A stretch of DNA of 53,941 bases from Candidatus Levyibacteriota bacterium (GCA_030645455.1 JAUSNA010000069.1:1-53941); one strand, 5' to 3'. Shown: positions 18,307 to 35,984, counted from the first letter of the stretch. Notes: generated from the letters alone by a model not told the origin. Translations and numbers: made by a program.

Positions 18307-18314
18307 AACTGAGG

Positions 18315-18962
18315 CTATTGAATACCTTTCTTTCTCTTACTGTAAAGTAGGTAGAGACCAAAGCCAACAACTGCTATCAGCCCTAGCACAATACCTACGA
18401 TTATTATAATATTACTACTCTCGACTTTTTTCATCTCAACAGGCTTGTCTTGCACAGTTAACGGCTCGACGGGAGTAGCATTTGGAGGAGGTGTAATACC
18501 CTCAAGGAACGGTACTTCAAAAAACTCTCCACCAACACCTTCATGTGTAAATTCCTTCCCCTCCGAAAGTTTTAGAAGTGTAAATTTTTTCGTAAATTGT
18601 GTCGACTTACCAAGAGAACCAAGTTTGCTCCCCTGATCCGGAATCGGATTATAAAGCATTACATATTTTGCAATGTTAACATTCTCATCAATAGTTTTAA
18701 ATTTGAGATTTCTTTTCTCAATTAAATCTTTTTGTAAACTTGTAAAAATCCCGACAAATGTCGGCTCTTCAACACTCTCTCCATCCAAATACACAAGCGT
18801 GCGGTCAGTATTTTGAAAAATAAATAATAAATCTTCATGAGTAACGTAGGTAACAACTCCTAATATTTTTTGGGATTGCGCCTGAACGCCACCGGTAAAA
18901 GAAATGCAAAAAACAACAAATACAATGATACTTACAATTATTTTATTCATCTGCAAGGTCAA
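18315..18962 (-). CDS. Exported protein with signal peptide and C-terminal TM anchor, hypothetical
   Basis: N-terminal signal-like helix (IIVSIIVFVVFCISFTGGVQAQ), C-terminal TM plus a basic tail (IIIIVGIVLGLIAVVGFGLYLLYSKRKKG). 20-nt overlap with the protease gene's 3' end. Confidence 0.55.
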   Translation of the reverse strand: MTLQMNKIIVSIIVFVVFCISFTGGVQAQSQKILGVVTYVTHEDLLFIFQNTDRTLVYLDGESVEEPTFVGIFTSLQKDLIEKRNLKFKTIDENVNIAKYVMLYNPIPDQGSKLGSLGKSTQFTKKFTLLKLSEGKEFTHEGVGGEFFEVPFLEGITPPPNATPVEPLTVQDKPVEMKKVESSNIIIIVGIVLGLIAVVGFGLYLLYSKRKKGIQ

Positions 18963-21900
18963 CTACTGCACCTGCAACTGCTTTTGCAGTTTTGGTGATT
19001 TGATCAAAGTTAATATTCTCTATTTTATCATTGAGTGAGTGATAGATGGGGGAAGAAAGCGTTGTGGTGATAACACACTCATATCCGAAAGCGGCTTGTT
19101 TTCCCTTTGCTTGAAATGGGTAATGGTCACTGGACGGAATTACCGACAATATTGACCGGGCTTCTAATCCGATGTTGTAGCGTGTATTTGTATCAACGAC
19201 TCTTGACGTAAATGCGCTTCCAAGTCCGCCGACCCCATATGTAAAATCAACGCACGCCTTCCCACCGCTTGAAATCCCAATCATGTCAAGGTTCATAAGT
19301 CCCATAAGTGTTTTTGTTCCAAAATTGTTTGCGTAGTATTTACTCCCATAAAGCCCTTGCTCCTCCCCTGAGAATAGAACGAATTCAATAGAATGTTCAA
19401 GAACAGGCTTTGATGTTGCAATTGCACGGGCAATTTCCATTACGGCTGATGTACCACTCCCGTTGTCATCTGCCCCAGGAGATGGATCATTCGTACCCGA
19501 ACTTTTAGCAGTAGAGTCCATATGCGCTGTTACCATATATACTGAATTTTTGTTTTTACCATCATAACGAGCAACAATATTTTTAGTTGTGCAATTCCCA
19601 TTTGAAAATGACTGCTCTTCAACTGATAGCCCCAGAAAAGCCATGTGATCCTTTATGTAATTGCGCTCCTCGGTATTTCCCGGAGCACAACTATACCGTG
19701 CCTGGAAATTATCTCCAGAAGTGTTTTTACCTACCAAGTTGGAAAGATACTCACGGATTTTTTGCTCAGACACTACATCTATTGTTGCCTTCACCCCCGA
19801 AAGTGCAGTCGTTGGTGTTAATGCTCCGGTTGTTATTGTTGGATTTGTACTTCCTGTTGGACCGGCTGTAGGACTAGTGCCTCGTGGTACGGTTGCTGTT
19901 GGGCTTGTTGGTGATTGCGTAGGATTTGTCGATAAGACAGACTGACATATAAGCGGACACAGCTGTATACTTTTGCCACTATTAATACATTTAGGATCAG
20001 GAAGACATGTAAACATCTGCCGTGGTGTAGGAGACGGTCCTGGAGTACCACCCGTTGGAGCTGGACCACTGGGAATTGTCGGTGCCGGTCCCGAAACATC
20101 ACACCTGGCTGTTGTTACATTTAGTGAAAATATCAAACTTGGAACGGCGTCTGCTTGCGCAGTATGCACTTCAATTGAGTACTTATAATCCTGTGTCAAA
20201 CCGGTCGTCGTAGATAGTAAGTTACCCGTAGAAACGTACGTTCCCTTTCCAGAAGCAGGTGATCCAAATGTACCGGCAGTATAGCTCATATCCTCAATTC
20301 CTGTAGGAGCACCCTTATCATTTATTGTTTTAAATACTCCACCAGAGGGGTCAGTAATATCATAATCTATCTTCAAATGTGCTTTACCTCCTTCACAAAT
20401 TGGTGTAACGCTTATTTTCCACGATCCCGAAGCCCCGACAACAGGCGTCGGGGTTGGTAGACCGGTACTCCCCGTTGGAGTCGCCCCTGTTGGCCCAGGC
20501 GAGACAGGTGGAGCACCACCAGATGACGCGCATGTAGCAGATTGCATGGCTATTCCTTGACATATCGGACTCACAACAGAACCTGTCGGCTGCTGATCAA
20601 GCTCCGTTGCTTGCATTGCTCTTGTCACGTTTTCGCATTCTGGTGATCCTGTTCCAAATAAATCATTACACGCCTGAATATACGACGCGTATGCGTCTTT
20701 AAAATTGGATGTTGGAGTCAAATATTTAGTAAGCGCCTGGTATGCGACTTTTATACTCTTATCCCTTCCTATTCCATTTATAGAACACCCGTTATAGCTT
20801 CCCCCATCCGTCATCAAGTAGAAAGTTTTGTTGAATACTCCGCTGTTCTTGTGTACTCCCCCGTTATCCGATATTGCACAATGGTAAAGTGTTGATGAGA
20901 GCTTGTCGGGATTACCTTTTGACGGAGGGTTGCTCATTGAGCGGAGCGGTACGGGAAGACCGATACCGGGTGTCAAATTTTCACCTATCTCCCAGTTGCC
21001 ATCAACTGCACTTCCAAAAATATCTGAAGTTGATTCATTTAATGCTCCCGACTGACGCATATACTGCAGATTTGCGGTACGTGAAGTTATAGCGTGCGTT
21101 AATTCATGCGCTGCCACATCAAGCAATACCAACCCCGAGCAAAAAACCATTTCGTATCCATTCCAGAAAGCATTTGGACATTTCATGGTCGAACCATTTA
21201 TTGAAAAGCCTGTCGGTGCATGAACGTATCCTTTAATAAGAGCGCCACTACCGTCAAAACTATCCCTACCAAAGTTATTTGCCAAAAAGTCATAGATATT
21301 TCCAAAATATGTGTATAAATTATTTACATCCGCATCCGTAACAGTTGGGTCTCCTTCTTTACGTGTAAGAATGCACGATCCCCCCTGACAGTTATATATG
21401 TTGCGGGAAAGCGCATCTCGTGTTTGGGATTCGGTATAAATAATTTCTCCATTGGTAAGCGAAATAATATAATCCGTTCTGAATAAAACTGGCACTCCCG
21501 GTGACTCCACCTCTACTTTTAGCGCTATCTTGTCGGTAACATCATTTGACAACCCCAATAATTTTTCGTTTACGTAAAATTTATTTGTCTGCTTGACGAT
21601 AAGCTCCCGAGCACCGCTTTCCTCCCGTGCTTTTTCAATTGCAATTTTAATTGCCTCACTTTCAGATAGTTTTTCTGCAGTTTGGGTTTTTGCTGTTGAT
21701 ACATTTCCGGACGTTGCATAAATCTCACTTCCATTTCTTAAATGAATAACTACCTGAGCGTTATAAACAGGAATTCCATTTATTTTTTGGTCAAAAAAGT
21801 AGTGTTCATTCGTAAGTATAAAATTATTGCTTTTCAAAAAAGTATCATCAGCATCCTTCTCCTCACGGATTACAAACGCATTATCGGAAAACTTTTCAGG

Positions 21901-22209
21901 AAATATGGGTGGCGTTGAGTTAAATGAAGGGTTTGCCTTAATAAATTCAATTGCCGCCTCTTTTCCCTTTTTTGATTTTGATTTATATAAATATTTACCT
22001 TGCGAACTAAGTGAAAAAACAGTTCTTCCCTCTTCTTGATTGATTCCTGAATAAGGAGAGACACTTACCTGTATCTTTTCTTCATCGATGCGAAACAGAT
22101 ATATAAAAACTCCCACCAACAAAAATACTAAAACCGAAGCTATAAGAACAGAGATTTTTTTATGAACTAACAAAAAATCCGAGAATTTTTTCCAGTAAAT
22201 TAATGTCAT
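18943..22209 (-). CDS. Membrane-anchored multidomain protease: thermolysin-like M4 endopeptidase fused to an M28 aminopeptidase
   Basis: N-terminal TM and a propeptide-like region. M4 signatures are VAAHELTHAITS (HExxH) and GALNESTSDIFG (third zinc ligand Glu). Pro/Thr-rich linkers and a Cys-containing middle domain follow. C-terminal M28 signatures are VTAHMDS, GADDNGSGTSAVMEIAR, FSGEEQGLYGS and SDHYPF. Confidence 0.85.
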   Translation of the reverse strand: MTLIYWKKFSDFLLVHKKISVLIASVLVFLLVGVFIYLFRIDEEKIQVSVSPYSGINQEEGRTVFSLSSQGKYLYKSKSKKGKEAAIEFIKANPSFNSTPPIFPEKFSDNAFVIREEKDADDTFLKSNNFILTNEHYFFDQKINGIPVYNAQVVIHLRNGSEIYATSGNVSTAKTQTAEKLSESEAIKIAIEKAREESGARELIVKQTNKFYVNEKLLGLSNDVTDKIALKVEVESPGVPVLFRTDYIISLTNGEIIYTESQTRDALSRNIYNCQGGSCILTRKEGDPTVTDADVNNLYTYFGNIYDFLANNFGRDSFDGSGALIKGYVHAPTGFSINGSTMKCPNAFWNGYEMVFCSGLVLLDVAAHELTHAITSRTANLQYMRQSGALNESTSDIFGSAVDGNWEIGENLTPGIGLPVPLRSMSNPPSKGNPDKLSSTLYHCAISDNGGVHKNSGVFNKTFYLMTDGGSYNGCSINGIGRDKSIKVAYQALTKYLTPTSNFKDAYASYIQACNDLFGTGSPECENVTRAMQATELDQQPTGSVVSPICQGIAMQSATCASSGGAPPVSPGPTGATPTGSTGLPTPTPVVGASGSWKISVTPICEGGKAHLKIDYDITDPSGGVFKTINDKGAPTGIEDMSYTAGTFGSPASGKGTYVSTGNLLSTTTGLTQDYKYSIEVHTAQADAVPSLIFSLNVTTARCDVSGPAPTIPSGPAPTGGTPGPSPTPRQMFTCLPDPKCINSGKSIQLCPLICQSVLSTNPTQSPTSPTATVPRGTSPTAGPTGSTNPTITTGALTPTTALSGVKATIDVVSEQKIREYLSNLVGKNTSGDNFQARYSCAPGNTEERNYIKDHMAFLGLSVEEQSFSNGNCTTKNIVARYDGKNKNSVYMVTAHMDSTAKSSGTNDPSPGADDNGSGTSAVMEIARAIATSKPVLEHSIEFVLFSGEEQGLYGSKYYANNFGTKTLMGLMNLDMIGISSGGKACVDFTYGVGGLGSAFTSRVVDTNTRYNIGLEARSILSVIPSSDHYPFQAKGKQAAFGYECVITTTLSSPIYHSLNDKIENINFDQITKTAKAVAGAVVDLADE

Positions 22210-22757
22210 TGCTTAAGGATTTTTACAGTAGCGGAGGTTTCATTGGCATTAACTAGTTCTATCTGAAATCCAAATCCGACTAATTTATCCGTACAGGCTC
22301 CGGCAATCCCGCCGCAAAGGTATTGTAGCTTTTTTTCGATGCCTTTTTGCTCAAGAGAAATATCCGTCGTTGTTGAACAATCAATACAATTTGGGTTAGG
22401 TATATCCGCACCAACATACAATATTTTTACATCAGAATTAGGGATATCAATCTGCCTTCCTTTCTCAAGTGTCAATTCTATCGCTGCAGAAATTGAAGGT
22501 GAAATTGGCGCACCCGTTGCCGAAAGGGTAGGAGCTACAAGAGTTGGAGTAGGAATATTTGAGATCTGAGAATTATTTTTTGGAATTACAAAAAAAACAG
22601 CAGCAAAAACTATCAATAATATAACAACTATAATTACTGCTACCACTATAATTGGCTTTTTTGAACGTGGAGGAACTTGTTGCATAGACAGCTGCTGGAT
22701 AGGTGCTTCTTGAACAGAAGCTGGTGAAGGGGGCTGCACGACTTGATTGTTGTCCAT
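22206..22757 (-). CDS. N-terminally anchored extracytoplasmic protein, hypothetical
   Basis: Q/P-rich N-terminus, one TM (IIVVAVIIVVILLIVFAAVFFVI) and a ~110-aa Cys-containing ectodomain. ATGA overlap with the protease start (22206-22209). Confidence 0.55.
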   Translation of the reverse strand: MDNNQVVQPPSPASVQEAPIQQLSMQQVPPRSKKPIIVVAVIIVVILLIVFAAVFFVIPKNNSQISNIPTPTLVAPTLSATGAPISPSISAAIELTLEKGRQIDIPNSDVKILYVGADIPNPNCIDCSTTTDISLEQKGIEKKLQYLCGGIAGACTDKLVGFGFQIELVNANETSATVKILKQ

Positions 22758-22761: not shown

Positions 22762-25605
22762 TTACTGAGGCTGGGTCATATCCCGTTGCATTTGCGTACC
22801 ATCCATAGACATAGGAGCAGCAGATACCACACCATTTGACTGTGCTGGATCAGCTGTAAATGGATTGAATGGTGCTGGAGTCATGGGATTTTGTATAGGT
22901 GTATAGGGATCTACTATCATGCCGTTAGGCTGCTGGTTTTGAGCAGGAGCAGGAAGAACTACACCATTTTGTCCTGTTGGACCAACCGGTTCTTGGGGTG
23001 GGATAGGACCACCAGGCTGGGGTACAGAAGTTCCAGGCTGGGGTTGGGTTAATGACTTAATAAATGTATACTCACCTTTTGCCTCATCGTAATCAACCTT
23101 TATCGTATCTCCTGGAACAAATTTTTGACCGATAATTTCAATACTTATCGGGTTTTCGATAGCACTTTGGATGAGACGTCTCAAGGGCCTTGCACCATAT
23201 ACTGGATCGAATCCTTCATTCCCAAGTCTTTCCAATGCTTTGTCTGAAATTTCGAGCACGAATCCCTGCTCTTTAAGCAGCTTTGCGGTTTTACCGATAT
23301 TAATTCTTGCAATTTGCTTCATGTCTTGCTTTCTTAATGGTTTGAATATAACTACTCCGTCAAAGCGGTTCACAAGCTCAGGCCTGAAAAACTTTGTCAG
23401 TTCTTCCATAAGTTTTTTTGAAAGATCCGCAAAAACTTTCTGCATGTGAGGATCCTGATTCGGCACCTTTGGAACTGCTGCTACTGCGCCGTTTGCACTG
23501 ACTACAGAGCCTGCTGCTGGCTGCACCTGAACTCCTGCTGGTGCTACTCCTGCGGTCTGTTGTTGTCCGCCATTTACTGCAGTCTGCTGCGGCAAGGGGG
23601 TCGCACCGCTTGCCATTTTTTGCTGTGAATCCTGCTGAGCTTTTGCATTCGTTAATGCCTCCTGAATAGATGAACTTCCGATATTTGAAGTTGCAATAAC
23701 AATAGTATTTTTAAAAGAAATCGTATTGCCTTTGTTATCTGTAAGTCTTCCATCCTCCAAAAGCTGAAGAAGAATATTAAAAACGTCAGGATGCGCTTTT
23801 TCAACCTCGTCAAGAAGAACAATTGAATAAGGTTTTGCGCGGACTGCTTCTGTGAGCTGACCACCTTCTTCGTATCCTACATATCCCGGTGGTGCTCCGA
23901 TGAGTTTTGCTACCTCATGCTTCTCCATATACTCTGACATATCAAGCCGCACCATTGCATCATCTTTGCCAAAAAGAATTTCAGCTAACGTTTTGGCGAG
24001 TTCAGTTTTGCCTACCCCTGTAGGACCAAGAAAAATAAACGACGCAATTGGCCGGTTTGCAGCAGCAAGACCAATTCTTCCACGCCTTACAGCCTCAGAA
24101 ACTGCAGCTACAGCCTCTTCCTGATCTATGAGTCTATTGTGAATAAGTTCTTCGAGTTGAAGCAGCTTTTTACCTTCATCTTCGGTAAGTTTTGTGATAG
24201 GAATACCTGTCCAATCACTTACAACTTTCTCTATATCTGCCCTTTTCAATTCGGTATCTTGCCGTTGACCCTGCGCATGCTTCAGCTTCACCTCGGCTGC
24301 AGCCTCATCAAGTAGGTCAATAGCCTTATCGGGCAAGAAGCGTTCTCCAACATATTTCTTAGACAATGTCACGGAAAATTTAATAGCATCGGGAGTAATT
24401 GTGACGGAGTGAAATTTTTCGTATTTCTCCTTCAAAACTTCAAGCATTTTCATCGCTGTCTCCTCATCGGGCTCATCAACAATTACCGACTGGAAGCGCC
24501 TTTGAAACGCCTTATCTTTCTCAAAATACTTCCTGTACTCGGCCGTTGTTGTAGTACCTATTAGTTGCAATTGTCCCCGGGCCAAATAAGGCTTTATGAT
24601 ATTTGATGCATCCATCGCTCCTCCTCCTTCTTCTCCTGCTCCTATCAAAGTGTGGATTTCGTCGATAAAAAGGAGGATTTTTCCACCTGAAACTTGAACT
24701 TCCTTAATAACATTTTTCAACCTTTCTTCAAATTCTCCGCGATGGGATGCGCCCGCAATGAGCGCTGCCAAATCAAGCTCTATTATCTTTTTATCCTTCA
24801 ACTGATCAGGGACTTGGCCTTTGATTATATTCTGAGATAGCCCCTCAATTACAGCTGTTTTTCCGACTCCAGCCTCTCCGATAATGATAGGGTTATTTTT
24901 TGTTCTTCTAAGAAGAATGTGCGTTAGTCGCTCAATTTCTTTATCGCGCCCAACAACCGGATCAAGCTTTCCGTCTCTTGCTTCTCCCGTTAGGTCAATG
25001 CCGAATTGTTCAAGGATAGATTTCTTTCCCGCTGCCTGAAAAGTAGGACTTTTTGAAAGATTTTTTTCGACTCCTTCTTTTTGGATACCCTTCGTAGAAA
25101 GGTATTGCGCTGTCGCATCCTGATTGAATAACGCAAGCAAAATATCCTCAGGAGTAATAAAGCTTGACCCTCTATTTTTGGCGAAGGTGAACGCCTCATC
25201 AAATATTTTTTGTGATACCGGAGAAAGTATTGGTGCTCCTTCAAATGTACCGGGGGTTTGTTTTTGCTGAAGCTCACGCGCTAAATCACCCACGTTTACC
25301 GTAAACTCCTGTAGTGTTTTATAAACTTCTTTATCGTATAAAAGCCCAAGCAGCACCAGATCCGGTTCAATTTGAGAAAGTTTTGCTTTTTTTGCCTCAT
25401 TTTGCGCTTGTTGCAATACTTGATTTGCGCGGGCATCAAGATGAGTCAGACTCTCAACATTCTGCCTCTTTACAGGATCCATCCCGCCAGGCTGCGTGGG
25501 GCTTTCAATAACCGCTTGTGGTGCATTTTGATTCTGCTGATCAACTGCTCCCTCAGGCGTTCCATCTTCACCGTATTTTTTTGTTGAAAATAAATTACCA
25601 AACAT
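22762..25605 (-). CDS. Two-ring Clp/Hsp100 AAA+ unfoldase without a coiled-coil M-domain (ClpA/ClpC-like layout), with low-complexity insertions
   Basis: Clp_N repeats, then NBD1 ([17 protein letters not shown]). Only about 20 residues separate [16 protein letters not shown] from VVSDWTGIP, where ClpB carries about 120. NBD2 shows [20 protein letters not shown] and GARPLRR. A Q/A/G/V-rich insert lies at about 23450-23680, and a 97-aa P/Q-rich tail at 22762-23055. Confidence 0.85.
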
Positions 25606-25653
25606 ATATTTATTATGAACTACTGCGCAAATCCTATCAACAACCCAAAAAAC

Positions 25654-27804
25654 TTAATTTGCCGCACTCGGCGGACTACCGGGCGGATTTTGTCCATCGT
25701 CATCTTTTTTTTCATCCGGGTTTTGAGACTCCACCGATGGTTCATCTGTTGGTAATTCCTGATGCATCACCATTTCCGCTTGTCCTGATTTTGTTTCATC
25801 CCTACGCTCAACCATCGTATCCTCATCTTCTGTCTTAGCATCAACACTTGCAATGACCGTCTTTGCAGCCTCCATTTTCGCTTTGAGGTACGAAATAACT
25901 TCTGTCTTTGAAAAACCTCCTAGCAATAAAAATGGCAAGATATTAGCAACTCTCTCCATGCCTTTATCAACATTTTCTTGATTGTCAGAACTCAGCAAGT
26001 TAATTGTTTCCGTAATATTTGCGATATCGGACTGGATAAAGCTATGCTTGTCGGTTGGAATGCCATTCGGACCAATTGGGGTTTCCATGTTTTGGTAATT
26101 CTCAAGCCACATTTTTCTGACATCTTCATATTCTTCGATACTTACCTGCTGAACCTGATTTACATGAGGAAGCTTTACCTCTTTAATGCTTGTAAGAGAA
26201 GCTTGTTTTTGGCCGGGCGTTACAGCTTTTGTTTTGTTACCCATTTCCTCAGAAACCTTTGTCGCAGATAATACATTTTCAGCTAATTTGTCGCCCTTCT
26301 TTTGTTGTGTTACCAATTTTTCCTTGATAGTAGTGAATTTTTGCCTATCAACGGGAGTTGCAACCGTTGTAGGTTTAGATATTTTCTCGAGAGTGTCATG
26401 GAAACGGCTTATCTCGGACCTCGAAACAGTATCATGTTTCATTAGAGACGTTTCGTATCTGGCAATATCCTTCATCTTTGGAATTGAGAGATTTGCAAGG
26501 CGCAGAACGTCTTTTGTTTCCCTTACTGTTTGAAGGTTAGTAAGTGATGCTCTTTCAAGAGTGCTGGTCGTTCGTGAGGTGGGAATTTCCATTGCCCTCT
26601 TATTGAAAAAGGGGATACTCTTAGCAAGGCCGAAAGGTGAGGGTTGCTGTGGAGGGCTTCCCGGTGGAGGCTGTTGTCCCCCATATGCTTTATTGAACCA
26701 AGAATTTGAGGTTATCTTTTTGATTACAGGACTTTCTGCAATAGATACGTTACTTAAATAATCAAGAAATATCTGTAAAAGCAAAAAAGGTAGTAATATT
26801 ACTACCCACAGCATTAATAGCGCCACAACATAAAGAGCAAAGGTATCTTTCAAATTAACTGAGTTATTAAGTCCTATCTGCTGACCCGGACCTCCCAAAA
26901 GAATATTAATTGCAGTTGGATATACAGCCGATCCAACCTTTGAAAAATCAAAACTCATCGGAATTCCACTTCTCCACACATTTACCAAACCGTGGAGAAA
27001 AAGCGCAAATAACGGTGCATATAACAGCCATCGGAAAAATTCACCGATCCATATTTTTGCCGTATTTCTCACTGGCCTGAAAAAGAAAAGCAGAGGAAAA
27101 ATTGGGCTAACAATAATAAAAAACCACAATATTATTTTTCTAATTAAAAGTAGTCCTGTCATTACATAATAGGTAATTGCGGTAAGCTTTACTAACAAAA
27201 GAGAAATAAAAGCGGATTCATCAAAGTCAATTCCAAGCTTCCTATACCCCCTAAATGATTCGTAATCAAAGGCTATAAACAACAAATCTTGCGGCCCAAT
27301 ATTGCGGTTTTGCCCTGTAACCGGATCTTTTACATTGAGAAAAAATCCCTGTATAACATCTGTTGCCTGATACAAAAACCGTATAATTGCAAAAGAAAGA
27401 ACGACAAGGATTACAATCATGATAAATCTGGGAATAAATTTCATTACCGTCAGATTTTGTCCGCGGGTAATTATCATGACAAAAGCGGCTCCCAAAACAA
27501 AAAGAGAAAGCATAACAAACACAATATTTCTAACAATCGCCCAGAAGCTTTGTATCGGATTGTTATTGGCTCCTTCCGGAAGAGTTATCCACCGATAATT
27601 TTCGACAGATAATGTCCACTCTAAAAAGCCATTGGCGCGGGTCGCGGTCTTTCCAACAAATGTCACTTCCTGATCTCTTACCCAACCGGTCGTAATGTCT
27701 GGAGTCGGAGTCTGAGCAAAAGAGGGCTTCACAAATAGAAATGCACCAATGGTAAGAAGAGAAATTATGAATAATCTGACTATAAGGGGCAGTTTGTTAA
27801 GCAT
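25654..27804 (-). CDS. Large polytopic membrane protein (possible VirB6/TrbL-like) with a ~330-aa hydrophilic C-terminal tail
   Basis: Signal-like N-terminus (..GAFLFVKPSFAQ), about 8 TM helices in the first ~380 aa, then a charged/coiled tail bracketed by PPGSPP motifs. Starts 1 nt after the small pilin gene. The VirB6 assignment rests on context and topology only. Confidence 0.5.
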   Translation of the reverse strand: MLNKLPLIVRLFIISLLTIGAFLFVKPSFAQTPTPDITTGWVRDQEVTFVGKTATRANGFLEWTLSVENYRWITLPEGANNNPIQSFWAIVRNIVFVMLSLFVLGAAFVMIITRGQNLTVMKFIPRFIMIVILVVLSFAIIRFLYQATDVIQGFFLNVKDPVTGQNRNIGPQDLLFIAFDYESFRGYRKLGIDFDESAFISLLLVKLTAITYYVMTGLLLIRKIILWFFIIVSPIFPLLFFFRPVRNTAKIWIGEFFRWLLYAPLFALFLHGLVNVWRSGIPMSFDFSKVGSAVYPTAINILLGGPGQQIGLNNSVNLKDTFALYVVALLMLWVVILLPFLLLQIFLDYLSNVSIAESPVIKKITSNSWFNKAYGGQQPPPGSPPQQPSPFGLAKSIPFFNKRAMEIPTSRTTSTLERASLTNLQTVRETKDVLRLANLSIPKMKDIARYETSLMKHDTVSRSEISRFHDTLEKISKPTTVATPVDRQKFTTIKEKLVTQQKKGDKLAENVLSATKVSEEMGNKTKAVTPGQKQASLTSIKEVKLPHVNQVQQVSIEEYEDVRKMWLENYQNMETPIGPNGIPTDKHSFIQSDIANITETINLLSSDNQENVDKGMERVANILPFLLLGGFSKTEVISYLKAKMEAAKTVIASVDAKTEDEDTMVERRDETKSGQAEMVMHQELPTDEPSVESQNPDEKKDDDGQNPPGSPPSAAN

Positions 27805-27805
27805 A

Positions 27806-28123
27806 TTAGGAAAATCCCGGAATTTTTAATATATCAGCAGTAACAATTTGAATAAATACAAACCCAAAAATTGCAAGCAACATCCCGATAATTGCGTATG
27901 TGATATAGGATTTTCCGGCATGCAGTCTTTCTGGATTTCCTTGCGAAACAAGTATATGGTATCCGCCAATTATCAGAAACAGAAGGCCAACAAGACCAAT
28001 AAGTCCTAATCCGATACCGTAAAATCTGGCAACAAAACCTACGGGGTCGTTAGGAATGCATCCAAAGTCAGTAACAATCTCTTTTAGTGGATCGCACGCG
28101 TCGGCGGGTACAATTGAAGCCAT
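27806..28123 (-). CDS. Small TrbC/VirB2-type (T4SS-like) pilin
   Basis: 105 aa with two hydrophobic helices separated by a short polar loop: GIGLGLIGLVGLLFLIIGGYHILVSQGNPERLHAGKSYITYAIIGMLLAIFGFVFIQIV. An upstream Cys pair is present (ACDP...FGCIP). This matches my recollection of the small 'T4SS pilin' family abundant in CPR genomes. Confidence 0.55.
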   Translation of the reverse strand: MASIVPADACDPLKEIVTDFGCIPNDPVGFVARFYGIGLGLIGLVGLLFLIIGGYHILVSQGNPERLHAGKSYITYAIIGMLLAIFGFVFIQIVTADILKIPGFS

Positions 28124-28178
28124 ACAACTTTAATAGTAGCACTAAAGCAGTGGAGAAAACAACACGTTTTTGCTCAAA

Positions 28179-30284
28179 CTATTCAATTACACTACCCCAA
28201 ACAACAACGGTGAAGTCTTTACGCACAAGAGGCTTAAATTCCGGTCTTGAGACTAACACATCGGTTGCATTTGAAAGTTTTTTAGCATAAAAAATGTGGG
28301 ACATAAAAGCTTGGGGTTTTGGCAAAACATCAATCGCCAATAAATTTTCTACCTCCTTTTCGGGCAAATTGCTAAAATAGACATAAGAAGAACCCTCCAA
28401 CTCTCGGCTGAAAAAAGTAACAATGTCCATAACCTCGCGTGTATTAAATCCTAAAGAATAGGCATAATCAGCAATCCCTCTCTGGAGTTCGGAACTCTTT
28501 AAAATTACGCCACCTGAAGGCAAAGCAACACTTCCGCGGGGAAAATCGTAATCAATTTTCTTATAATTACCTTCAGAAAAACGCAACGCACCATCCCTAT
28601 TGGTTTCAAAACTCCACACCCCATTGACAAGCTGAGGTACTGCGGATCCTTTGCTTATGGGGGTCCGTGGTGAAATTGTAATTTTTTTGTTATCACTGCT
28701 ATATGCATAAATCGGGCATGCCTCACAAGCTTCATAATTTGGGTATCCTTTTTTCTCCCATTCGGTTTCGCATTCGGAACGCGGATTTTTCCGTTCGCGC
28801 TTCGGCTCAACAGGGACAAAAGTCCCCAGCTTTAACTGCCTATCGGTTACTGACAACTCGTCAACCAACTTCTTATTACGCTCTATTCCTAATTTTTCTT
28901 GTGGTAATTTCGGCATGACTGAGACAAATTCAAAGTCATTCGACTTATCGGGAAGAATTGTAGTAATAAGTTCTTTTGTGGTTAGGTTATATACTTTTAT
29001 TGATTTCAACTTATTCTTGTATCCCGATGGCCCAATACCATTCCCGGTACCCAGGTTTCCTCTAAACGCTATCTCCTCACCGATAAGCACAGTTTTATCA
29101 CCCGAAGGTAATTCACCTACGTCAAGTATTCTTATTGTGTTGTCCGACTTGCCAACGATTGTTTCTTTTGTAAAATTACCTTCCTTGTCTTTTTTGATTA
29201 GCTGTATTTCCGAAAAAACAAGCATTGACTTTCCCCCAACTGACTCTACCCGGTATATTTCAGAAACTATACTCATATCACTTTCCGGCACACCTGATAC
29301 AAACACCGGATGCTTGTAATGCTCACCTTCATTACCCGGAGCAACAGTTACAATTTGCTTTGAATCTAAGTCGTAGGTCTTAACAATATTGGTATTTACT
29401 ATTTGATCCCGCGTACTATCGGTATCACCAGTTGACGGAAGTCTTGAATTATTCGGATCAAAAGCCGTATAGAGAAGGTAACGTTCGTTAAAGAAATACG
29501 GATTACTATTATATGAATTTAGAGGAAGTATCACGCTTAACGCCTCGTTTTTATATCCGTAATAAAGCGCATAACTGCTTGGTATGAGGGTATCAAAATA
29601 TACCGATCCTACATTTGTAATAACCGAAGGCAATGAGATCGCAACGCCCGGTCCGGCTTTTTGCTCAAGAAGAGTAGATGGGGAAAGCGTTTCTTTTCCA
29701 TTGATCACTTCATCAAGATTTGCTTTAAAAACCCTGTAAAAATCGTTCTCGTGAGTGTAGCCACCGTCATCTGCAGCCTTTACTTCGTACCAAGCAATCC
29801 ACTTGTGATCTTTCGAAATTACATACCGGTCTATTTTATATTCGTCCGTAGGTGTATAAATGGTTCTAACCGGTCCATCAATATCACTACCTGCTGGGGT
29901 TATTTGCTTTAAAGCAAATGATCCACCCATATCCCCATAATCAGTGTCTGCAATATACAAAAGGTGCTTACCCGTAACAAGTGGTGTTACGAATTTCACC
30001 GTATCTTTAATTGTTGTTACCGATGAATTATTTATTCCCGAATCGTTTATTGCAGATATTAAGGATATGTCTTCTCCTTTTGAGCCATAAATAAGGGTGT
30101 TAATTGATGAGGTATCATTTTTCAGGTCTTTTTGATTCTCTTTAGGAATTTCCTGCCTAATAGGAGCGTTCCCCCCACCCCGTTGACTCATGGCACCAAT
30201 AAAACCCAATCCCAAAACAATAAGTGCACCAAGCAGAAGAAAGGGTGAGTTGTCTGAGCTGAAGCGCTTTCCAATTGAGACCAT
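28179..30284 (-). CDS. Large exported/anchored protein, hypothetical (propeller-like N-terminal half, Cys-cluster C-terminal half)
   Basis: N-terminal TM/signal (FLLLGALIVLGLGFIGA). Repeated beta-rich segments resemble TolB/WD40 blades (LLYIADTDYGDMGG, WIAWYEVKAADDGG, YLLYTAFDPNN). A cluster SECETEWEKKGYPNYEACEACP is also present. Confidence 0.5.
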   Translation of the reverse strand: MVSIGKRFSSDNSPFLLLGALIVLGLGFIGAMSQRGGGNAPIRQEIPKENQKDLKNDTSSINTLIYGSKGEDISLISAINDSGINNSSVTTIKDTVKFVTPLVTGKHLLYIADTDYGDMGGSFALKQITPAGSDIDGPVRTIYTPTDEYKIDRYVISKDHKWIAWYEVKAADDGGYTHENDFYRVFKANLDEVINGKETLSPSTLLEQKAGPGVAISLPSVITNVGSVYFDTLIPSSYALYYGYKNEALSVILPLNSYNSNPYFFNERYLLYTAFDPNNSRLPSTGDTDSTRDQIVNTNIVKTYDLDSKQIVTVAPGNEGEHYKHPVFVSGVPESDMSIVSEIYRVESVGGKSMLVFSEIQLIKKDKEGNFTKETIVGKSDNTIRILDVGELPSGDKTVLIGEEIAFRGNLGTGNGIGPSGYKNKLKSIKVYNLTTKELITTILPDKSNDFEFVSVMPKLPQEKLGIERNKKLVDELSVTDRQLKLGTFVPVEPKRERKNPRSECETEWEKKGYPNYEACEACPIYAYSSDNKKITISPRTPISKGSAVPQLVNGVWSFETNRDGALRFSEGNYKKIDYDFPRGSVALPSGGVILKSSELQRGIADYAYSLGFNTREVMDIVTFFSRELEGSSYVYFSNLPEKEVENLLAIDVLPKPQAFMSHIFYAKKLSNATDVLVSRPEFKPLVRKDFTVVVWGSVIE

Positions 30285-30296
30285 AGGCAGTTATTG

Positions 30297-30776
30297 TTAC
30301 TCTTTTAAAACCTGTATCTCAATCTTATCCAAATCCTTCAGTAAAATCCAGCGGTAGGGACTAGTAACTTGTTTTCCATTTTTCTTCAAAATAATCTTAT
30401 ATCCATCAAATGTTCTGATCGCTCCAATTTGAGAATTATTAAACGTTGTCCCCATCACGTCAAAAAAATCACCTAAGAAAAAAGGTACTGGATACGGATA
30501 TTCCATATGAATAAGACCCGTTGCGTCATGTGTATGCAGTGGATGCATACAATCTTGGGTTAATCCTATGCTGGGTGGAATTTCAATTTCTCTTCCTTCC
30601 TGAATAATTTTTAACTGCGTGTGACTATGAGTTGGACTATGGTCGACGTGTTCAACACATTGTCTAAAAATAAAACTTCTAGCCCACAGTATTCCAACGA
30701 CAAAAAAAATAAGGCCACCAAAAAACACTCCGATAATTTTTTTACGGCTTGGATATAAAATTCGCTTCCTACTCAC
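30297..30776 (-). CDS. Membrane-anchored protein with conserved-looking His motifs, hypothetical
   Basis: One N-terminal TM, then HVDHSPTHSHTQLKII..G.EIEIPPSIGL..DCMHPLHTHDATGLIHMEYP. GTG start at 30776. Confidence 0.5.
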   Translation of the reverse strand: MSRKRILYPSRKKIIGVFFGGLIFFVVGILWARSFIFRQCVEHVDHSPTHSHTQLKIIQEGREIEIPPSIGLTQDCMHPLHTHDATGLIHMEYPYPVPFFLGDFFDVMGTTFNNSQIGAIRTFDGYKIILKKNGKQVTSPYRWILLKDLDKIEIQVLKE

Positions 30777-30816: not shown

Positions 30817-32739
30817 TTAGCTGACAACTTCGCCTTCTTCGGCATCTTCTTTCTTCGAGTCTGAGGAAGTGCTGTCAGGATTCTCTTCCGAATCTGCGTC
30901 GGCAGAACTTTCACCTTCAGTTTTTTGCTCATTATCTTCAGGCTTTTGATTTGCGTACATTTTTTCTCCCACTTTAGAAATCTTCTCAGATAGATCTTTT
31001 GTCTTTGACTCAATCTCTTCTTTATCGTCTGTGTCTTTTACTTTACGAAGGCTCTCAATTGCTTCCTCTACCTCTTTTTTATCTGCTTCCTCTATCTTTC
31101 CCTCCAAATCTTTAATAGATTTTTCAGCAGTAAAAATAAGGTTGTCTGCACTATTTTTCACTTCGATCAATTCCTTTTTCTTTGCGTCCTCCTCAGCGTG
31201 CGCTTCCGCATCCTGAGTCATCTTCTTTATTTCATCGTCCGTCAGACCGGTCGATCCGGTTATTTTAATACTTTGTTCCTTACCCGTTGCTTTGTCTTTT
31301 GCTGTTACAGAAAGAATACCGGATGCATCAATATCAAAAGTTACCTCAACCTGGGGCACCCCACGCGGTGCTGGGGGAATACCATCTAATATAAATCTCC
31401 CCAGTGATTTATTGTCTTGAGCCATTGGACGCTCTCCCTGAACTACGTTAATTTCAACTTGAGTTTGGTTATCGGCAGCGGTTGAGAATACCTGAGATTT
31501 TTTACTTGGAATTGTTGTATTCTTCTCAATTAAAGGTGTTGCAACTCCACCCATTGTCTCAATTCCTAAAGTAAGAGGTGTTACATCCAAAAGCAAAACG
31601 TCTTTTACCTCTCCACCCAAAACTCCCGCCTGAACTGCTGCACCGACTGCAACTACTTCATCCGGATTTACTGATTTGTTGGGCTCTTTTCCGAAGAATT
31701 TTGTTACTTCGGAAATTATTTTTGGCATTCTTGTCATACCTCCTACTAAAATGATTTCATCAATGCCACTAGTCTCAACCTTTGCGTCTTTCAACGCTTG
31801 CCTTACAGGGCCAAAAGATTTTTCGATAAGAGGAGATACTAATGATTCAAGTTTTGAGCGTGTGATTTTTACGGTTAAATGAAGTGGCCCAGATGGTCCC
31901 TGCGTGATAAATGGCTGGTTAATTTCTGCTTCCATTGAAGTTGATAATTCAATTTTTGCTTTTTCCGCCGACTCCTTAAGTCTTTGCAATGCCTGAGGGT
32001 CTTGCCTCAAATCAATGCTATTTTCCTTTTTAAATTCATCTGCCAAATAGTCGATAAGCACCTGATCAAAATCGTCTCCTCCCAGATGCGTATCTCCATT
32101 CGTTGCTTTTACCTCGTAAACTCCTTCACCTAATTCCAAAACTGAAATATCAAATGTTCCACCGCCCAAATCATAAACAGCAACGGTATGGGCGTGTTTT
32201 TTATCGAGTCCGTACGCAAGAGCTGCTGCTGTCGGCTCGTTAACAATGCGAAGTACCTCAAGGCCGGCAATTTCTCCAGCCTGCTTTGTTGCTTGGCGCT
32301 GCGCGTCGTCAAAATATGCAGGAACCGTAATAACAGCCTGGGTAACTTTGTCTCCAAGATAGTTTTCAGCATCTTTTTTAAGTTTCTGTAAAATTTGTGC
32401 TGAAATTTCTTGAGGAGTATATGCTTTACCATCAACTTCAACAACAGCCATACCTTCTCGGCCATTTTTTACGTCATAGGGCAATAGCTTCAAATCGCGC
32501 TGTACGGAATCGTCCTTCAGCTTTCTTCCCATTAGTCTTTTTACGGAAAATATAATTTTCTTAGGCTTCAAAACCATTTGACGCTTTGCAACATCTCCAA
32601 CAACTCTTTCGATAGGATCAACAACTGATGGGGTAGTATTTCTTCCCTCGGAAGAGAATATAACCTTTGGAGATCCACCCTCCATAACGGCCATACATGA
32701 ATTTGTTGTTCCTAGATCAATACCTATAATTTTTCCCAT
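30817..32739 (-). CDS. dnaK: Chaperone DnaK (Hsp70)
   Basis: [17 protein letters not shown], a VGG-containing segment and an acidic C-terminal tail, full length at 640 aa. Confidence 0.97.
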
Positions 32740-32811: not shown

Positions 32812-33315
32812 CTAATTTCTTTCCCCCTGCCCGACTTTTACTTGCGCAGGTCGGATTAATTTGCCGTTTACTGTAAAACCGGGTCTTACTTCTTCTATTA
32901 TTTTTTCCTTTGGTCCATCAACTACTTCAACTACCTCCATCGTATCCGCATTATATTGTGCATTATGGGTATCTACTTTTTCAATACCGTTTTCTTTTAA
33001 TACGTCTACTATTCTTCCGATTGTCAATTTTACACTTTCATCCGTAGTATATTTTCCTGCTAAAAAAAGTGTGTCAAAAGCAGGAAGCAATGCTTCTATC
33101 AGCTGTTTGTTTGCAAACCGTATTGCCTCGCTTCGTTCTTCAAAACTTCTCCTTTCCAAATTTCTATAGTCTGCGACCGCCCTTGTTAGTTGGTCAGAAA
33201 GTTCAATTATCTTTGCATCCTTTTCATCTTTTTCCGGTTCTGCCTCTTGTACCTTATCAGCAATTACTTCTTCTTTGTCTTTTTTTATTTTCTTGTCATC
33301 CATTGTCTTTACCAA
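32812..33315 (-). CDS. grpE: Nucleotide exchange factor GrpE
   Basis: Coiled-coil N-terminus, RAVADYRNLERR and a C-terminal beta domain (..PGFTVNGKLIRPAQVKV). 7-nt overlap with hrcA. Confidence 0.9.
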   Translation of the reverse strand: MVKTMDDKKIKKDKEEVIADKVQEAEPEKDEKDAKIIELSDQLTRAVADYRNLERRSFEERSEAIRFANKQLIEALLPAFDTLFLAGKYTTDESVKLTIGRIVDVLKENGIEKVDTHNAQYNADTMEVVEVVDGPKEKIIEEVRPGFTVNGKLIRPAQVKVGQGERN

Positions 33316-34031
33316 GTTGCAACGTCTTCTATTAAAGAGCCATAGTACCTCACAAGTGGCACAATATTTTCATATCTAAGTCTTGCAGGACCAATTACTC
33401 CAATTGTCCCATCGTGATTACTTTTTGTATGGAACTTTGAAAAAACAAAACTGTATGGTTTGAATAATTCAAGCTCCATATCATCTCCCAAAATAACTGC
33501 AAATTTCTCATGTATCAGCCCAAATAAGGTGTCAAAATGCGCTTGGTTGTCGAGTAAATTCAATAAATTCTTTGTTACATCGATATCATAAAATTCAGGC
33601 ATGTCCAAAATTTGCGAATATCCTGAGCAGAAAAAGTTGCCGTCGTCATTGCGAGCAATCGCCAATGTTCCGGTTTTTTCAGCCAATCTTTGAGTTGCCG
33701 CTCTCATAAATTCATTTTCTTTCTCGCGTACGTCCCAAATTTTCTCTTTTGCTTCTACCTCTTCCGCAACCGACAAGTCTTTTTCCTTCATCAGCTCATT
33801 TACATAAAGCTTCATCGCTTTTGATGTAGGAACCCTTCCTGCGGACGTGTGGGGCTTTGCCAAATACCCTTTTTTTATCATAGCCGCCATTTCATTCCGA
33901 ATTGTTGCAGGACTTACCCCCACATCGTACTTTTTTTCCAAAGTCTCAGAACCAACGGGATTTGCTGTATCGATATACTCCTTAACAATCTGTTTTAAAA
34001 TCTCGATTTGCCTTTGCGTTAAATCGTACAT
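33309..34031 (-). CDS. hrcA: Heat-inducible transcription repressor HrcA (short, 240 aa)
   Basis: N-terminal winged helix LTQRQIEILKQIVKEYIDTANPVGSETL...GVSPATIRNEM, first gene before grpE-dnaK, with a CIRCE operator upstream. It is about 100 aa shorter than typical HrcA. Confidence 0.85.
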   Translation of the reverse strand: MYDLTQRQIEILKQIVKEYIDTANPVGSETLEKKYDVGVSPATIRNEMAAMIKKGYLAKPHTSAGRVPTSKAMKLYVNELMKEKDLSVAEEVEAKEKIWDVREKENEFMRAATQRLAEKTGTLAIARNDDGNFFCSGYSQILDMPEFYDIDVTKNLLNLLDNQAHFDTLFGLIHEKFAVILGDDMELELFKPYSFVFSKFHTKSNHDGTIGVIGPARLRYENIVPLVRYYGSLIEDVATW

Positions 34032-34089: not shown

Positions 34090-34116
34090 TTAGCAATAAT
34101 ATACCATGAGTGCTAA
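34090..34116 (-). promoter_or_regulatory. CIRCE operator (HrcA binding site) of the hrcA operon
   Basis: Plus strand TTAGCAATA-ATATACCAT-GAGTGCTAA; minus strand TTAGCACTC-N9-TATTGCTAA. This is 16/18 to consensus TTAGCACTC-N9-GAGTGCTAA with exact 9-nt spacing. Confidence 0.8.
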
Positions 34117-34126
34117 ATGATGTCAA
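34098..34126 (-). promoter_or_regulatory. Putative hrcA promoter overlapping CIRCE
   Basis: Minus strand TTGACA (34121-34126), 17 nt, TATATT (34098-34103). The CIRCE left arm fills the spacer. Confidence 0.55.
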
Positions 34127-34547: not shown

Positions 34548-35984
34548 ATGAATAAAAATTACAATTTCGAAGAAAATGCAAAACGGAAGTTTTACATAAC
34601 AAACGCAATACCGTATGTAAATGCCAAGCCTCACGTAGGTCATGCGTTGGAATTCGTCCAATCAGATGTTATTGCCCGCTATCATAAACTTTTGGGAGAC
34701 AACACACTGCTTCTTTGTGGCGGAGATGAAAATGCGATAAAAAATGTACAAGCTGCTGAGATTGAAGGCAAAAAAATACAGGAATTTGTTGATGAGAACA
34801 GCATGCTTTTCCGAGATCTTGCCGAAAAGCTTAACGTTAATTTTGATGTTTTCCAAAAAGGAAGCAGCCCAGACCATTACAAATCCTCACAAGAATTATG
34901 GCAAAAATGTAATGAGAACGGTGATATATATAGAAAAGACTATGCGGGATTTTATTGCGTGGGATGTGAATTATTTTACGAAAAAGATGAATTAAATGAA
35001 AACGGTGAGTGCTTCGAACATCCTGGAAAACCGCTTCAAGAAGTAAGCGAATCTAATTATTTTTTCAAACTAAGCAAATTCCAAGATGAAATAAAAAATC
35101 TTATACAAACGGATACACTAAAAATAACACCTAATTCAAGAAAAAATGAAATGCTTGCCTTTATAGAAAAGGGGCTTGAGGATATTAGCATCTCAAGATC
35201 CAACGCACGAGCAAAAAATTGGGGCGTACCTGTTCCGGGTGATGACACACAACGGATGTATGTTTGGTTTGATGCGTTAAATATCTATAGAAGCGGCCTT
35301 GGTGAAAAATACGAAGAATTTTGGCCGGCTGATGTACATGTGATAGGCAAAGGGATCACAAGATTTCATGCAATTTATTGGCCGGCATTTCTGTTGTCCG
35401 CAAAAATCCCTTTACCAAAATCACTGTTTGTTCATGGTTACTTTACGGTAAATGGACAAAAAATGTCAAAAACTCTGGGAAACGTGATTGATCCTATCGA
35501 ATTGATTAATAAATATGGTGCGGACGCATTGAGATATTATTTCCTTACACAAATTCCACCTACGAATGATGGTGATTTTTCTGAGGAAAAATTAAAAATT
35601 GTCTATAACGCAGATCTAGCAAATGGAATTGGCAATTTAGTGGCAAGAGTATCTAAGTTGGCAGAAAAGATACAGTTTCATGCACCAAAAGATACGGCAA
35701 TTATTGACCCGCTGGTTATTGACGCCTTAAATGGATATAAATTTAATGAATGTTTAACTTTGATTTGGGCAGATATTTCAGCGCTCAACAAAAAGATCAA
35801 TGATACAGAACCATGGAAATTGGAGAGTCACGACCTTGAAGAGTTCTTATCCGAAGCGGCGATTAAGTTACTTTCAATCGCAAAAACTCTTCAACCGTTC
35901 TTGCCTGAAACTTCAGAAAAAATTCTCATACAGTTTTCGGGAGAAATAACATCCAACTCTTCACTTTTTCCCCGCATTTCCTAG
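34548..35984 (+). CDS. metG: Methionyl-tRNA synthetase (short form, no C-terminal tRNA-binding appendage)
   Basis: Class I signatures PYVNAKPHVGHA (HIGH) and KMSKTLGNVIDP (KMSKS), plus a CP knuckle remnant CVGCELFY...CFEHPG. Confidence 0.93.
   Translation: MNKNYNFEENAKRKFYITNAIPYVNAKPHVGHALEFVQSDVIARYHKLLGDNTLLLCGGDENAIKNVQAAEIEGKKIQEFVDENSMLFRDLAEKLNVNFDVFQKGSSPDHYKSSQELWQKCNENGDIYRKDYAGFYCVGCELFYEKDELNENGECFEHPGKPLQEVSESNYFFKLSKFQDEIKNLIQTDTLKITPNSRKNEMLAFIEKGLEDISISRSNARAKNWGVPVPGDDTQRMYVWFDALNIYRSGLGEKYEEFWPADVHVIGKGITRFHAIYWPAFLLSAKIPLPKSLFVHGYFTVNGQKMSKTLGNVIDPIELINKYGADALRYYFLTQIPPTNDGDFSEEKLKIVYNADLANGIGNLVARVSKLAEKIQFHAPKDTAIIDPLVIDALNGYKFNECLTLIWADISALNKKINDTEPWKLESHDLEEFLSEAAIKLLSIAKTLQPFLPETSEKILIQFSGEITSNSSLFPRIS

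Follow-up and report, generated by a model that had tools for sequence, protein, structure and literature searches.

A 53,941-nucleotide (nt) stretch of DNA from a Candidatus Levyibacteriota bacterium (GCA_030645455.1, JAUSNA010000069.1:1–53941; the whole stretch is called the window here) encodes on its minus strand, in direct succession, a small VirB2-like pilin, a large TrbL/VirB6-like membrane protein and a divergent two-ring Hsp100/Clp ATPase, which we name Clp1. The three genes stay together in related Levybacteria, the Clp–pilin pairing recurs in other Microgenomatia, and in six species a repeat typical of the VirB6-like protein is found in the tail of the neighbouring Clp. It is likely that the pilin, the VirB6-like protein and this clade of Clp proteins are coupled both genetically and functionally.

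A first-pass annotation of the window, made from the sequence alone, had singled out a block of five same-strand genes with gaps of 1 to 55 nt as a candidate envelope or export module. The five open reading frames (ORFs), all on the minus strand, and their spacing are as it described. In the direction of transcription they encode a 159-amino-acid (aa) His-rich, membrane-anchored protein without a family match (30297–30776), a 701-aa anchored or exported protein for which AlphaFold2 and Foldseek predict a β-propeller (28179–30284), the 105-aa pilin, of the PF18895 type by profile matches (27806–28123), the 716-aa extended TrbL/VirB6-like polytopic protein, placed by family-level matches to PF04610 (25654–27804), and the 947-aa Clp1, in which a Clp_N domain is followed by two AAA modules, D1 and D2 (22762–25605). 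The gaps between them measure 12, 55, 1 and 48 nt and contain no terminator-like sites. A transcript boundary between the pilin and 716-aa genes and the Clp gene, which the annotation had said would speak against the module, is thus not indicated.

Conservation of the gene triad

A scan of one genome per species returned 124 relatives of the polytopic protein, and the flanks of the 80 best loci were annotated with profiles of the window proteins. Most of these loci are labelled Levybacteria, Levyibacteriota or Patescibacteria, and many bear generic 'uncultured Gammaproteobacteria' titles. The latter titles, attached to third-party-annotation (TPA) metagenome-assembled genomes (MAGs) as 'uncultured Gammaproteobacteria bacterium' (L005–L017 and many others), are probably wrong, the gene content being typical of Patescibacteria. 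The pilin gene lies directly upstream of the VirB6-like gene in 75 of 76 evaluable loci, and Clp1 follows directly downstream in 59 of 68, with one intervening gene in eight more. The order pilin–polytopic protein–Clp is thus conserved in related Candidate Phyla Radiation (CPR) genomes, as supposed at first (75/76 for the pilin upstream, 67/68 for the Clp downstream). What flanks the triad varies, with dnaK, dnaJ or the 701-aa gene upstream and a protease gene, dnaJ or a second Clp gene downstream, while the triad itself remains intact. The conserved core therefore comprises three genes and not the five originally grouped as a module, for apart from the window just four close relatives (4/80 related loci) have the 159-aa/701-aa pair between dnaK and the pilin gene. 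Insertion of a mobile element was considered and rejected on the grounds that the GC content is even and that nearly all Levybacteria loci read contain the triad.

The nearest clusters of Clp1 outside the Levybacteria were sought among 1.8 billion cluster representatives, and a profile built from them retrieved 120 outgroup Clp proteins; among their source names are Woesebacteria, Roizmanbacteria and a single Parcubacteria label. In 118 of these 120 proteins the D1 pore loop reads ASHRG, as it does in Clp1. Nine neighbourhoods of such ASHRG Clps, attributed to other Microgenomatia, served as the outgroup set. None of the nine lies in a dnaK operon; a PF18895 pilin gene is found downstream of the Clp gene in eight of them, with zero to two genes between, a pilin-domain gene is present in all nine, and four encode a polytopic protein of 565–608 aa matching the Levybacteria VirB6-like profile. 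As a negative control only, we used a metagenome scan with the outgroup Clp alignment and the generic motifs DM[ST]E[YF]ME and I[LM]FIDE[IML]H, which returned ordinary ClpB/ClpC loci (39–51% identity). None of 80 such loci, in which the pore residue is Tyr or Phe wherever the motif was found, contains a pilin or VirB6-like gene. The recurrence of the pairing outside the dnaK operon argues against mere co-transcription, and on these comparisons the module appears conserved across the Microgenomatia (Patescibacteria/CPR), with the block in the window as its Levybacteria version.

The outgroup loci also encode membrane-anchored peptidases of the C39 or CHAP type and large unannotated proteins of 1174–1224 aa, one of them with a C-terminal hydrophobic segment. 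The large proteins were considered as divergent VirB4 and rejected, because they match no P-loop family. Genes divergent from the Clp–pilin pair encode a CHAP-domain protein as well as Peptidase_C39_2-like proteins that have a hydrophobic segment at the N-terminus (L087 6922–7959, L085 6376–7989, L090 6163–7944 and L085 4674–5669, all on the minus strand); these could be VirB1-like wall hydrolases or pilin-processing enzymes.

The pilin, the VirB6-like protein and Clp1

By its profile matches and its two hydrophobic helices, the 105-aa protein can be placed among the VirB2-like pilins, in agreement with its initial designation as a pilin of the TrbC/VirB2 type. It matches NF045849 (pilin-like conjugal transfer protein) with E=4e-7 and PF18895 (T4SS_pilin, the pilin of type IV secretion systems, T4SSs) with E=5.9e-5, the latter at 23.5 bits and thus just under the 26.6-bit cutoff. 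Related pilin-domain proteins score 28–33.9 bits on PF18895, and orthologues carry this domain; in the precomputed annotation the match of the L001 orthologue is unmarked (E<=1e-5) and those of L002 and L004 are weak. An N-terminal region with two cysteines precedes two transmembrane (TM) helices that flank a short basic loop. This two-helix layout is conserved. The orthologues inspected also share IPGF[S/N/K] as their extreme C-terminus, possibly a site of processing or cyclisation. Most orthologues have no signal peptide and start a few residues ahead of the first cysteine; a few, for example that of L068, have a clear signal peptide that ends just ahead of the same position. Beside the module in several lineages, proteins of 238–429 aa carry a C-terminal PF18895 domain behind a long N-terminal extension (L066 4643–5359 and L080 3960–5222, both on the minus strand; L087 4001–4735; L089 3776–4555; L090 2043–3341; L173 6306–7079).

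The 716-aa protein had been described as having about eight TM helices and a 330-aa cytoplasmic tail. It is indeed polytopic with a long hydrophilic tail, but its hydropathy profile indicates a signal peptide and five to six hydrophobic spans followed by a hydrophilic, helical C-terminal domain of 365 aa. The numbers of Lys and Arg residues in the loops favour a cytoplasmic position of this domain, where it is probably located. As for the proposed VirB6/TrbL type, the assignment holds at the level of the family but not for the window protein on its own, which has no Pfam match (none to PF04610 at E<=1). Matches to PF04610 (TrbL/VirB6) were obtained for 19 of 30 family members (E<=1), and four of these exceed the gathering score (26.0–29.4 bits vs 25.9) over profile positions 8–9 to 173–174 of 215; the orthologues above the cutoff are approximately 52% identical.

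Extended VirB6 proteins such as TraG of the F plasmid and the VirB6 paralogues of Rickettsiales consist of a polytopic N-terminal part and a large hydrophilic C-terminal domain of variable length. The proteins described here share this layout of a VirB6-like N-terminal part followed by a large hydrophilic domain, but possess a family-specific helical repeat module that is probably cytoplasmic, reaches about 2000 aa by tandem multiplication in some species and is shared with the adjacent Clp. Giant family members of 1200–2100 aa are encoded in L066 (9989–14665), L073 (9878–16012), L082 (2071–8466) and other loci. In the giant protein of L066 the whole C-terminal module of about 370 aa is tandemly tripled; the other giants were judged by length and repeat count only.

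Clp1 has the composition of an Hsp100/Clp class I AAA+ protein, namely Clp_N, two AAA modules and the D2-small domain, and the early description as a two-ring Clp is borne out by domains PF02861, PF00004, PF17871, PF07724 and PF10431, which all score above the Pfam cutoffs. Residues 243 and 527 mark its Walker A motifs, and D2 has kept an intact pore loop (GAPPGYVGY). The D1 pore loop reads ASHRG in place of the KYRG of ClpB, ClpA and ClpC, and the pore tyrosine is replaced in all 66 Levybacteria orthologues (63 His, 3 Arg). The nearest non-Levybacteria Clp clusters likewise have no pore tyrosine, and those further out are ordinary ClpC-like proteins with KYRG and IGF/LGF. By sequence, then, Clp1 is a member of a distinct Hsp100 clade of Microgenomatia whose general hallmark is a histidine in the position of the D1 pore tyrosine.

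The absence of an M-domain, noted in the first-pass annotation, applies to the window and to Levybacteria but is not clade-wide. In Clp1 about 120 residues of ClpB (~410–528) have no counterpart, query residue 440 running directly to 451, and the D1–D2 linker measures 30 residues in 53 of the 58 Levybacteria orthologues measured. The outgroup clade keeps a linker of 85 residues, presumably about the length of the half M-domain of ClpC, so that complete loss of the M-domain appears specific to Levybacteria. The long Q/P/A-rich extensions are also present, namely about 75 extra Q/A/P-rich residues within D2 (651–727) and a P/Q-rich C-terminal tail, but the insert is not the pore-side loop it had been taken for; its position corresponds to what we take to be the site of the ClpP-docking loop of ClpA/ClpC, on the exit face of D2. 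Among Levybacteria the low-complexity D2 loop comprises 35–112 aa, the C-terminal tail ranges from about 50 to 590 aa, and the ClpP tripeptide [ILVM]G[FLIM] is absent from the D2 insert of all 66 orthologues. The D2 insert of the outgroup proteins is 105–576 aa long, lies at the position that we likewise take to be that of the ClpP loop of ClpA/ClpC and, at lengths above 200 aa, takes the form of a conserved repeat domain and is not of low complexity. These domains of 260–570 aa contain repeats such as 'STYTFSPRGREILTIG...W...L.DYF', and 103 of the 104 inserts longer than 200 aa are mutually homologous (examples are P0387, residues 820–1132, and P0401, residues 825–1388, from loci L086 and L090).

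Judged by the NCBIfam equivalog cutoffs, Clp1 is neither ClpB nor ClpA nor ClpV. Its best structure matches are ClpB proteins (E=4e-204), and the Levybacteria gene resides in an hrcA-grpE-dnaK-dnaJ operon much as clpB genes do in dnaK operons; unlike ClpB, however, it does not contain the DnaK-coupling M-domain, it scores below the equivalog cutoff (895.5 vs 1232.1, TIGR03346), and its sister-order clade is encoded outside the dnaK operon. The match to ClpA is collinear without the M-domain, yet the score is again too low (717.8 vs 993.15), none of the 66 Levybacteria orthologues carries an IGF/LGF-type tripeptide, and an insert occupies what we take to be the loop site of ClpA and ClpC. ClpV/TssH resembles Clp1 as a two-ring Hsp100 with an N-domain and without ClpP docking; its gene lies with those of an envelope machine, which it serves instead of general proteostasis, as Clp1 would. 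Here, by contrast, the score falls below the ClpV cutoff (692.8 vs 884.95, TIGR03345), the D1 pore residue is a histidine, and the partners would be membrane proteins instead of a cytoplasmic sheath; no type VI secretion families were found in the window.

In L002 (18185–20560) and about 43 other Levybacteria loci, a further Clp-like protein, about 790 aa long, is conserved downstream of the operon. That of L002 has N-terminal hydrophobic segments resembling two TM helices, and in the copies checked D2 is normal and D1 divergent, lacking the pore-loop motif. Besides Clp1, the window shows no Clp-like ORFs.

A direct tie between the two larger proteins of the triad is provided by a 53-aa repeat in the C-terminal domain of the VirB6-like proteins, of which the window protein has one copy (residues 463–515). 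A hidden Markov model (HMM) of the repeat, built from VirB6-like proteins only and searched against all ORFs of 84 loci, matched nothing except 83 VirB6-like proteins (1–11 copies) and, in their C-terminal tails, six Clp1 proteins (1–4 copies). In a BLASTP comparison the Clp1 tail of L066 matches the C-terminal domain of its neighbour at 86 bits (E=1e-21), whereas 200 shuffles reach at most 25 bits, and the corresponding pair of L080 gives E=7e-17. Because this module is common only to the products of two adjacent genes, it would signal a functional linkage, and because it is shared with the tail of a Clp, the C-terminal domain of the VirB6-like protein would reside in the compartment of the Clp, i.e. 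the cytoplasm. Plain co-transcription with chaperone genes, kept as the alternative in the first-pass annotation, is thus argued against both by the repeat shared with six Clp1 proteins and by the outgroup pairing outside the dnaK operon (8/9). The length of the VirB6-like C-terminal domain also correlates with that of the Clp1 tail (Spearman 0.43, p=0.004), a value that is uncorrected for phylogeny and driven by a few extreme loci and to which we attach little weight; no such correlation was seen for the length of the D2 insert.

The heat-shock operon and neighbouring genes

The five-gene block exists as annotated and lies inside a larger heat-shock operon under putative control of CIRCE (controlling inverted repeat of chaperone expression), a setting beyond the coordinates of the first-pass annotation. 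On the minus strand the order of transcription is hrcA (240 aa, 33309–34031; identified by PF01628 in orthologous loci and by synteny), grpE (167 aa, 32812–33315) and dnaK (640 aa, 30817–32739; both by annotation of orthologous loci and synteny), then the genes of the 159-aa protein, the 701-aa protein, the pilin, the 716-aa protein and Clp1, and finally those of a 183-aa anchored protein (22206–22757), a fused M4 thermolysin and M28 peptidase (18943–22209), a 215-aa protein (18315–18962) and DnaJ (17403–18269). Within the string at 17403–22757 the genes overlap or are 4 nt apart, with 45 nt ahead of dnaJ.

The best promoter match of the region, a σ70-like sequence on the minus strand at 34090–34126 (TTGACA, 17 nt, TATATT; 11/12 positions), is overlapped by a CIRCE-like inverted repeat with two mismatches, 58 nt upstream of hrcA. 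Because the best promoter overlaps this repeat ahead of hrcA, the block appears to be embedded in a classical HrcA/CIRCE heat-shock operon of the order hrcA-grpE-dnaK-[block]-protease-dnaJ. Two CIRCE-like matches occur in the window and none in 100 shuffles of it, and a CIRCE-like site precedes hrcA in 46 of 61 related loci; across the related loci such a site is never found directly ahead of the pilin, VirB6-like or Clp genes. The second repeat in the window (36591–36617, three mismatches) lies upstream of a minus-strand 145-aa ORF (36047–36484) that corresponds to the HSP20 gene of related loci, where CIRCE-like sites precede hsp20 in 12. The GroES/GroEL gene pair at 44495–46560 has no CIRCE-like match at three or fewer mismatches, and the window yielded no matches in scans for Rfam families and tRNAs.

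The 159-aa and 701-aa proteins are, as far as sequence comparisons indicate, lineage-specific accessories and not part of the core. The former, with no detectable family, is encoded only in L005, L011, L012 and L015, always paired with the 701-aa gene. The 701-aa protein comprises an N-terminal anchor, a β-propeller (~60–460), a Cys-rich linker and a 180-aa α/β C-terminal domain (~520–700). Its AlphaFold2 model has a mean predicted local distance difference test (pLDDT) score of 80.2, and Foldseek matches to Kelch and TolB propellers (E about 1e-7, probability 1.00) agree with the early view of an exported, β-rich, propeller-like protein. Only 18 homologues were found in the database, and the C-terminal domain also occurs in proteins of about 460 aa that are encoded between the VirB6-like gene and the Clp gene in eight other Levybacteria loci.

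The M4/M28 fusion in the chaperone gene string (18943–22209, minus strand) is a 1088-aa anchored protein with P/T/S-rich linkers; at its position relatives encode an M4 peptidase only, an S8 peptidase or nothing. On the plus strand, positions 2192–4953 encode the type IV pilus pair PilB (T2SSE and MshEN domains, 562 aa) and PilC (T2SSF, 356 aa), followed to 7402 by small ORFs and a 647-aa LVIVD-repeat protein, which form a separate pilus system.

VirB4 and the role of the ATPase

VirB4 is, to our knowledge, regarded as the sole universal component of T4SSs, and in canonical systems extraction of the pilin is ascribed to it. A Pfam scan of the window ORFs of at least 350 aa, except that at 34548–35984, found no VirB4/VirD4-like ATPase, as noted in the first-pass annotation; the excepted ORF is methionyl-tRNA synthetase-like, and the annotation of relatives flags a tRNA synthetase there. 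The PilB/T2SSE ATPase at 2192–4953 belongs to the type IV pilus pair and is not VirB11, and neither the window nor the neighbourhoods read contain Pfam matches to a VirD4 coupling protein or a relaxase. No VirB4/VirD4-like ATPase is encoded within 10 kb in the 80 Levybacteria and nine outgroup loci, and the other large ORFs with a Walker A motif across 84 loci are FtsK, ABC transporter, RecA and GTPase proteins only. VirB4 is therefore not encoded with the other parts, as it would be in a canonical T4SS. Relatives that place these genes next to VirB4 and never next to Clp had been named as evidence that would count against the module, and the opposite is seen: the Clp gene is almost always adjacent and virB4 never.

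A Patescibacteria T4SS derived from the MPF-FATA type was recently described (Quinonero-Coronel et al. 2025, PMC12102498). It resembles the present system in that a PF18895 pilin and a TrbL/VirB6-like protein are encoded on the chromosome of monoderm CPR bacteria without a relaxase, but it was defined by and mapped around VirB4, which is missing within 10 kb in our 89 loci. In Microgenomatia virB4 lies near dnaA, VirB6 is 'scarce', and T4SS parts are often dispersed, VirB3 being rarely near virB4; only 1135 of 1948 assemblies have a pilin in its vicinity (PMC12102498). Clp or AAA proteins are not mentioned in the main text and the accessible part of the supplement of that study, and our literature search found no paper linking Clp/Hsp100 to these pilin and VirB6-like genes. 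Whether the Levybacteria genomes encode VirB4 elsewhere, a point raised early on, has a patchy answer: according to the accessible portion of Table S1 (PMC12102498), VirB4 is present in 20 of 44 listed Levybacteria assemblies and absent from 24, compared with presence in 2417 of 3035 Patescibacteria assemblies overall. Three of four assemblies shown to carry the triad are marked VirB4 'No' in the same portion of the table. The low rate is not easily attributed to MAG incompleteness, because it is far below the phylum average.

Taking these data together, we propose the following model. The pilin would insert into the membrane as a hairpin of two helices joined by a short loop on the cytoplasmic side, and the VirB6-like protein would form a membrane platform that presents its repeat-containing domain in the cytoplasm. 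A Clp hexamer that has lost both the M-domain, which ties Hsp100s to DnaK, and the tripeptide that docks ClpP would be recruited to this platform by the repeat domain and use ATP to pull on the pilin or the platform, thereby extracting pilin hairpins from the membrane for assembly, drawing them back in, or else removing and recycling them. In the window the module would be driven by the CIRCE/HrcA promoter along with grpE, dnaK and dnaJ. We infer the contacts between the proteins as well as the direction and purpose of pulling. The early suggestion of a Clp-family motor that services a pilin-based structure hence fares well with regard to coupling, which the recurrence of the triad, the shared repeat and the patchy VirB4 make likely, whereas the action of Clp as motor or dislocase is an extrapolation that is quite possible. 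A further possibility, only slightly less probable, is that the genes specify a previously undescribed envelope machine of Microgenomatia in which an Hsp100 and not VirB4 is the ATPase that either assembles or retracts a VirB2-type pilus or drives transport through a VirB6-type channel; in such a machine the repeat domain would be the part of the VirB6-like protein at which the Clp docks. Type IV pili, type II secretion systems and archaella resemble the triad in that pilin, polytopic platform and hexameric ATPase (PilA-PilC-PilB) are co-encoded, but the protein families are unrelated and the comparison is an analogy only.

Several points weigh against this model. Synteny is high in Levybacteria generally, with tRNA-synthetase, hsp20 and PEGA-domain neighbours conserved too. 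Linkage of dnaK and clpB exists in other bacteria, and the Clp gene may simply be ancestral to the operon. Clp1 may also be the sole N-domain Hsp100 of these genomes and hence a housekeeping enzyme, and the lost D1 pore tyrosine could weaken threading. The repeat occurs in six of about 74 Clp1 proteins, perhaps of one clade, and Clp1 of the window is not among them. Membership of the 716-aa protein in the VirB6 family, as judged from profiles, is only transitive; its AlphaFold2 model, based on a 30-sequence alignment, is poor (pLDDT 61.5; predicted template-modelling score, pTM, 0.37), Foldseek retrieved no PDB structure at E<=0.001, and searching the PDB with a profile gave only chance matches and no VirB6. 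Finally, about 45% of the Levybacteria assemblies in the accessible part of Table S1 do have a VirB4 that could serve these proteins (PMC12102498).

All evidence for coupling fits equally well with the main alternative, a Clp that serves as a dedicated chaperone, recycling or quality-control factor in the manner of ClpV, disassembling, extracting or clearing misassembled pilin/VirB6-like complexes while assembly is driven by VirB4 or proceeds by spontaneous polymerisation. Such a role suits the proteostatic setting of the Levybacteria heat-shock operon and the weakened D1 pore loop, which is compatible with a remodelling enzyme, and VirB4 would be at hand in the said 45% of assemblies. It is nevertheless unlikely in our view, since more than half of the listed Levybacteria assemblies are without detectable VirB4 and keep the triad, which would call for another assembly ATPase, and since the outgroup Clp–pilin pair is not part of a stress operon.

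That no coupling exists at all is rather improbable. The pilin and VirB6-like proteins would then be dispersed parts of a T4SS that uses the virB4 near dnaA, and Clp a general Hsp100, brought together by the history of a highly expressed operon; the syntenic housekeeping genes on the flanks and the dnaK-clpB operons of other bacteria are in keeping with this. So are the frequent dispersal of T4SS parts in Microgenomatia and the position of two loci, L172 and L173, near rpmH and yidC, where virB4 is placed (PMC12102498). However, adjacency persists through two gene orders and several unrelated contexts across orders, none of the 80 control Clp loci has a pilin gene, the Clp tail of six species bears a fused VirB6-like repeat, the Clp is devoid of the elements for coupling to DnaK and ClpP, and VirB4 is absent from the 24 listed assemblies. 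Highly improbable, finally, is a pilin-like and VirB6-like membrane anchor or adaptor that recruits Clp for general membrane-protein extraction and serves neither secretion nor a pilus: most pilin orthologues do lack a signal peptide, the Clp has no other known partners and related Levybacteria encode a second, membrane-anchored Clp nearby, but the extra pilin-domain proteins, C39/CHAP peptidases and 1174–1224-aa proteins of the outgroup loci have a composition typical of a cell-surface apparatus, and the pilin shows strong conservation of its C-terminal motif and of its extracellular region with two cysteines.

For the epibiotic life of CPR bacteria, their VirB2-like pilins are considered important. 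The parts of the triad belong to known families, and the pilin/VirB6 repertoire of Patescibacteria was described in 2025. More than half of the Levybacteria assemblies listed in the accessible part of Table S1 are without detectable VirB4, while Levybacteria loci nearly always keep the pilin and the VirB6-like protein beside a remodelled Hsp100. If Clp indeed serves these proteins, the 'scarcity' of VirB6 in Microgenomatia would be explained by a gene that is divergent and located elsewhere, and a first function would be assigned to a large, distinctive Hsp100 clade whose marks are histidine in the pore loop, a long D2 insert, the lack of a ClpP loop and, among Levybacteria, the lack of an M-domain. 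It would be the second Hsp100 dedicated to an envelope machine, after ClpV, with an Hsp100-driven pilus or secretion device as a testable prediction. If, further, the Clp takes the place of VirB4, a pilin and its platform would have recruited an AAA+/P-loop hexamer independently for the third time, and the system would represent a T4SS derivative that dispenses with VirB4, the only universal component; with Clp as the motor, it would be a categorically new type of machine.

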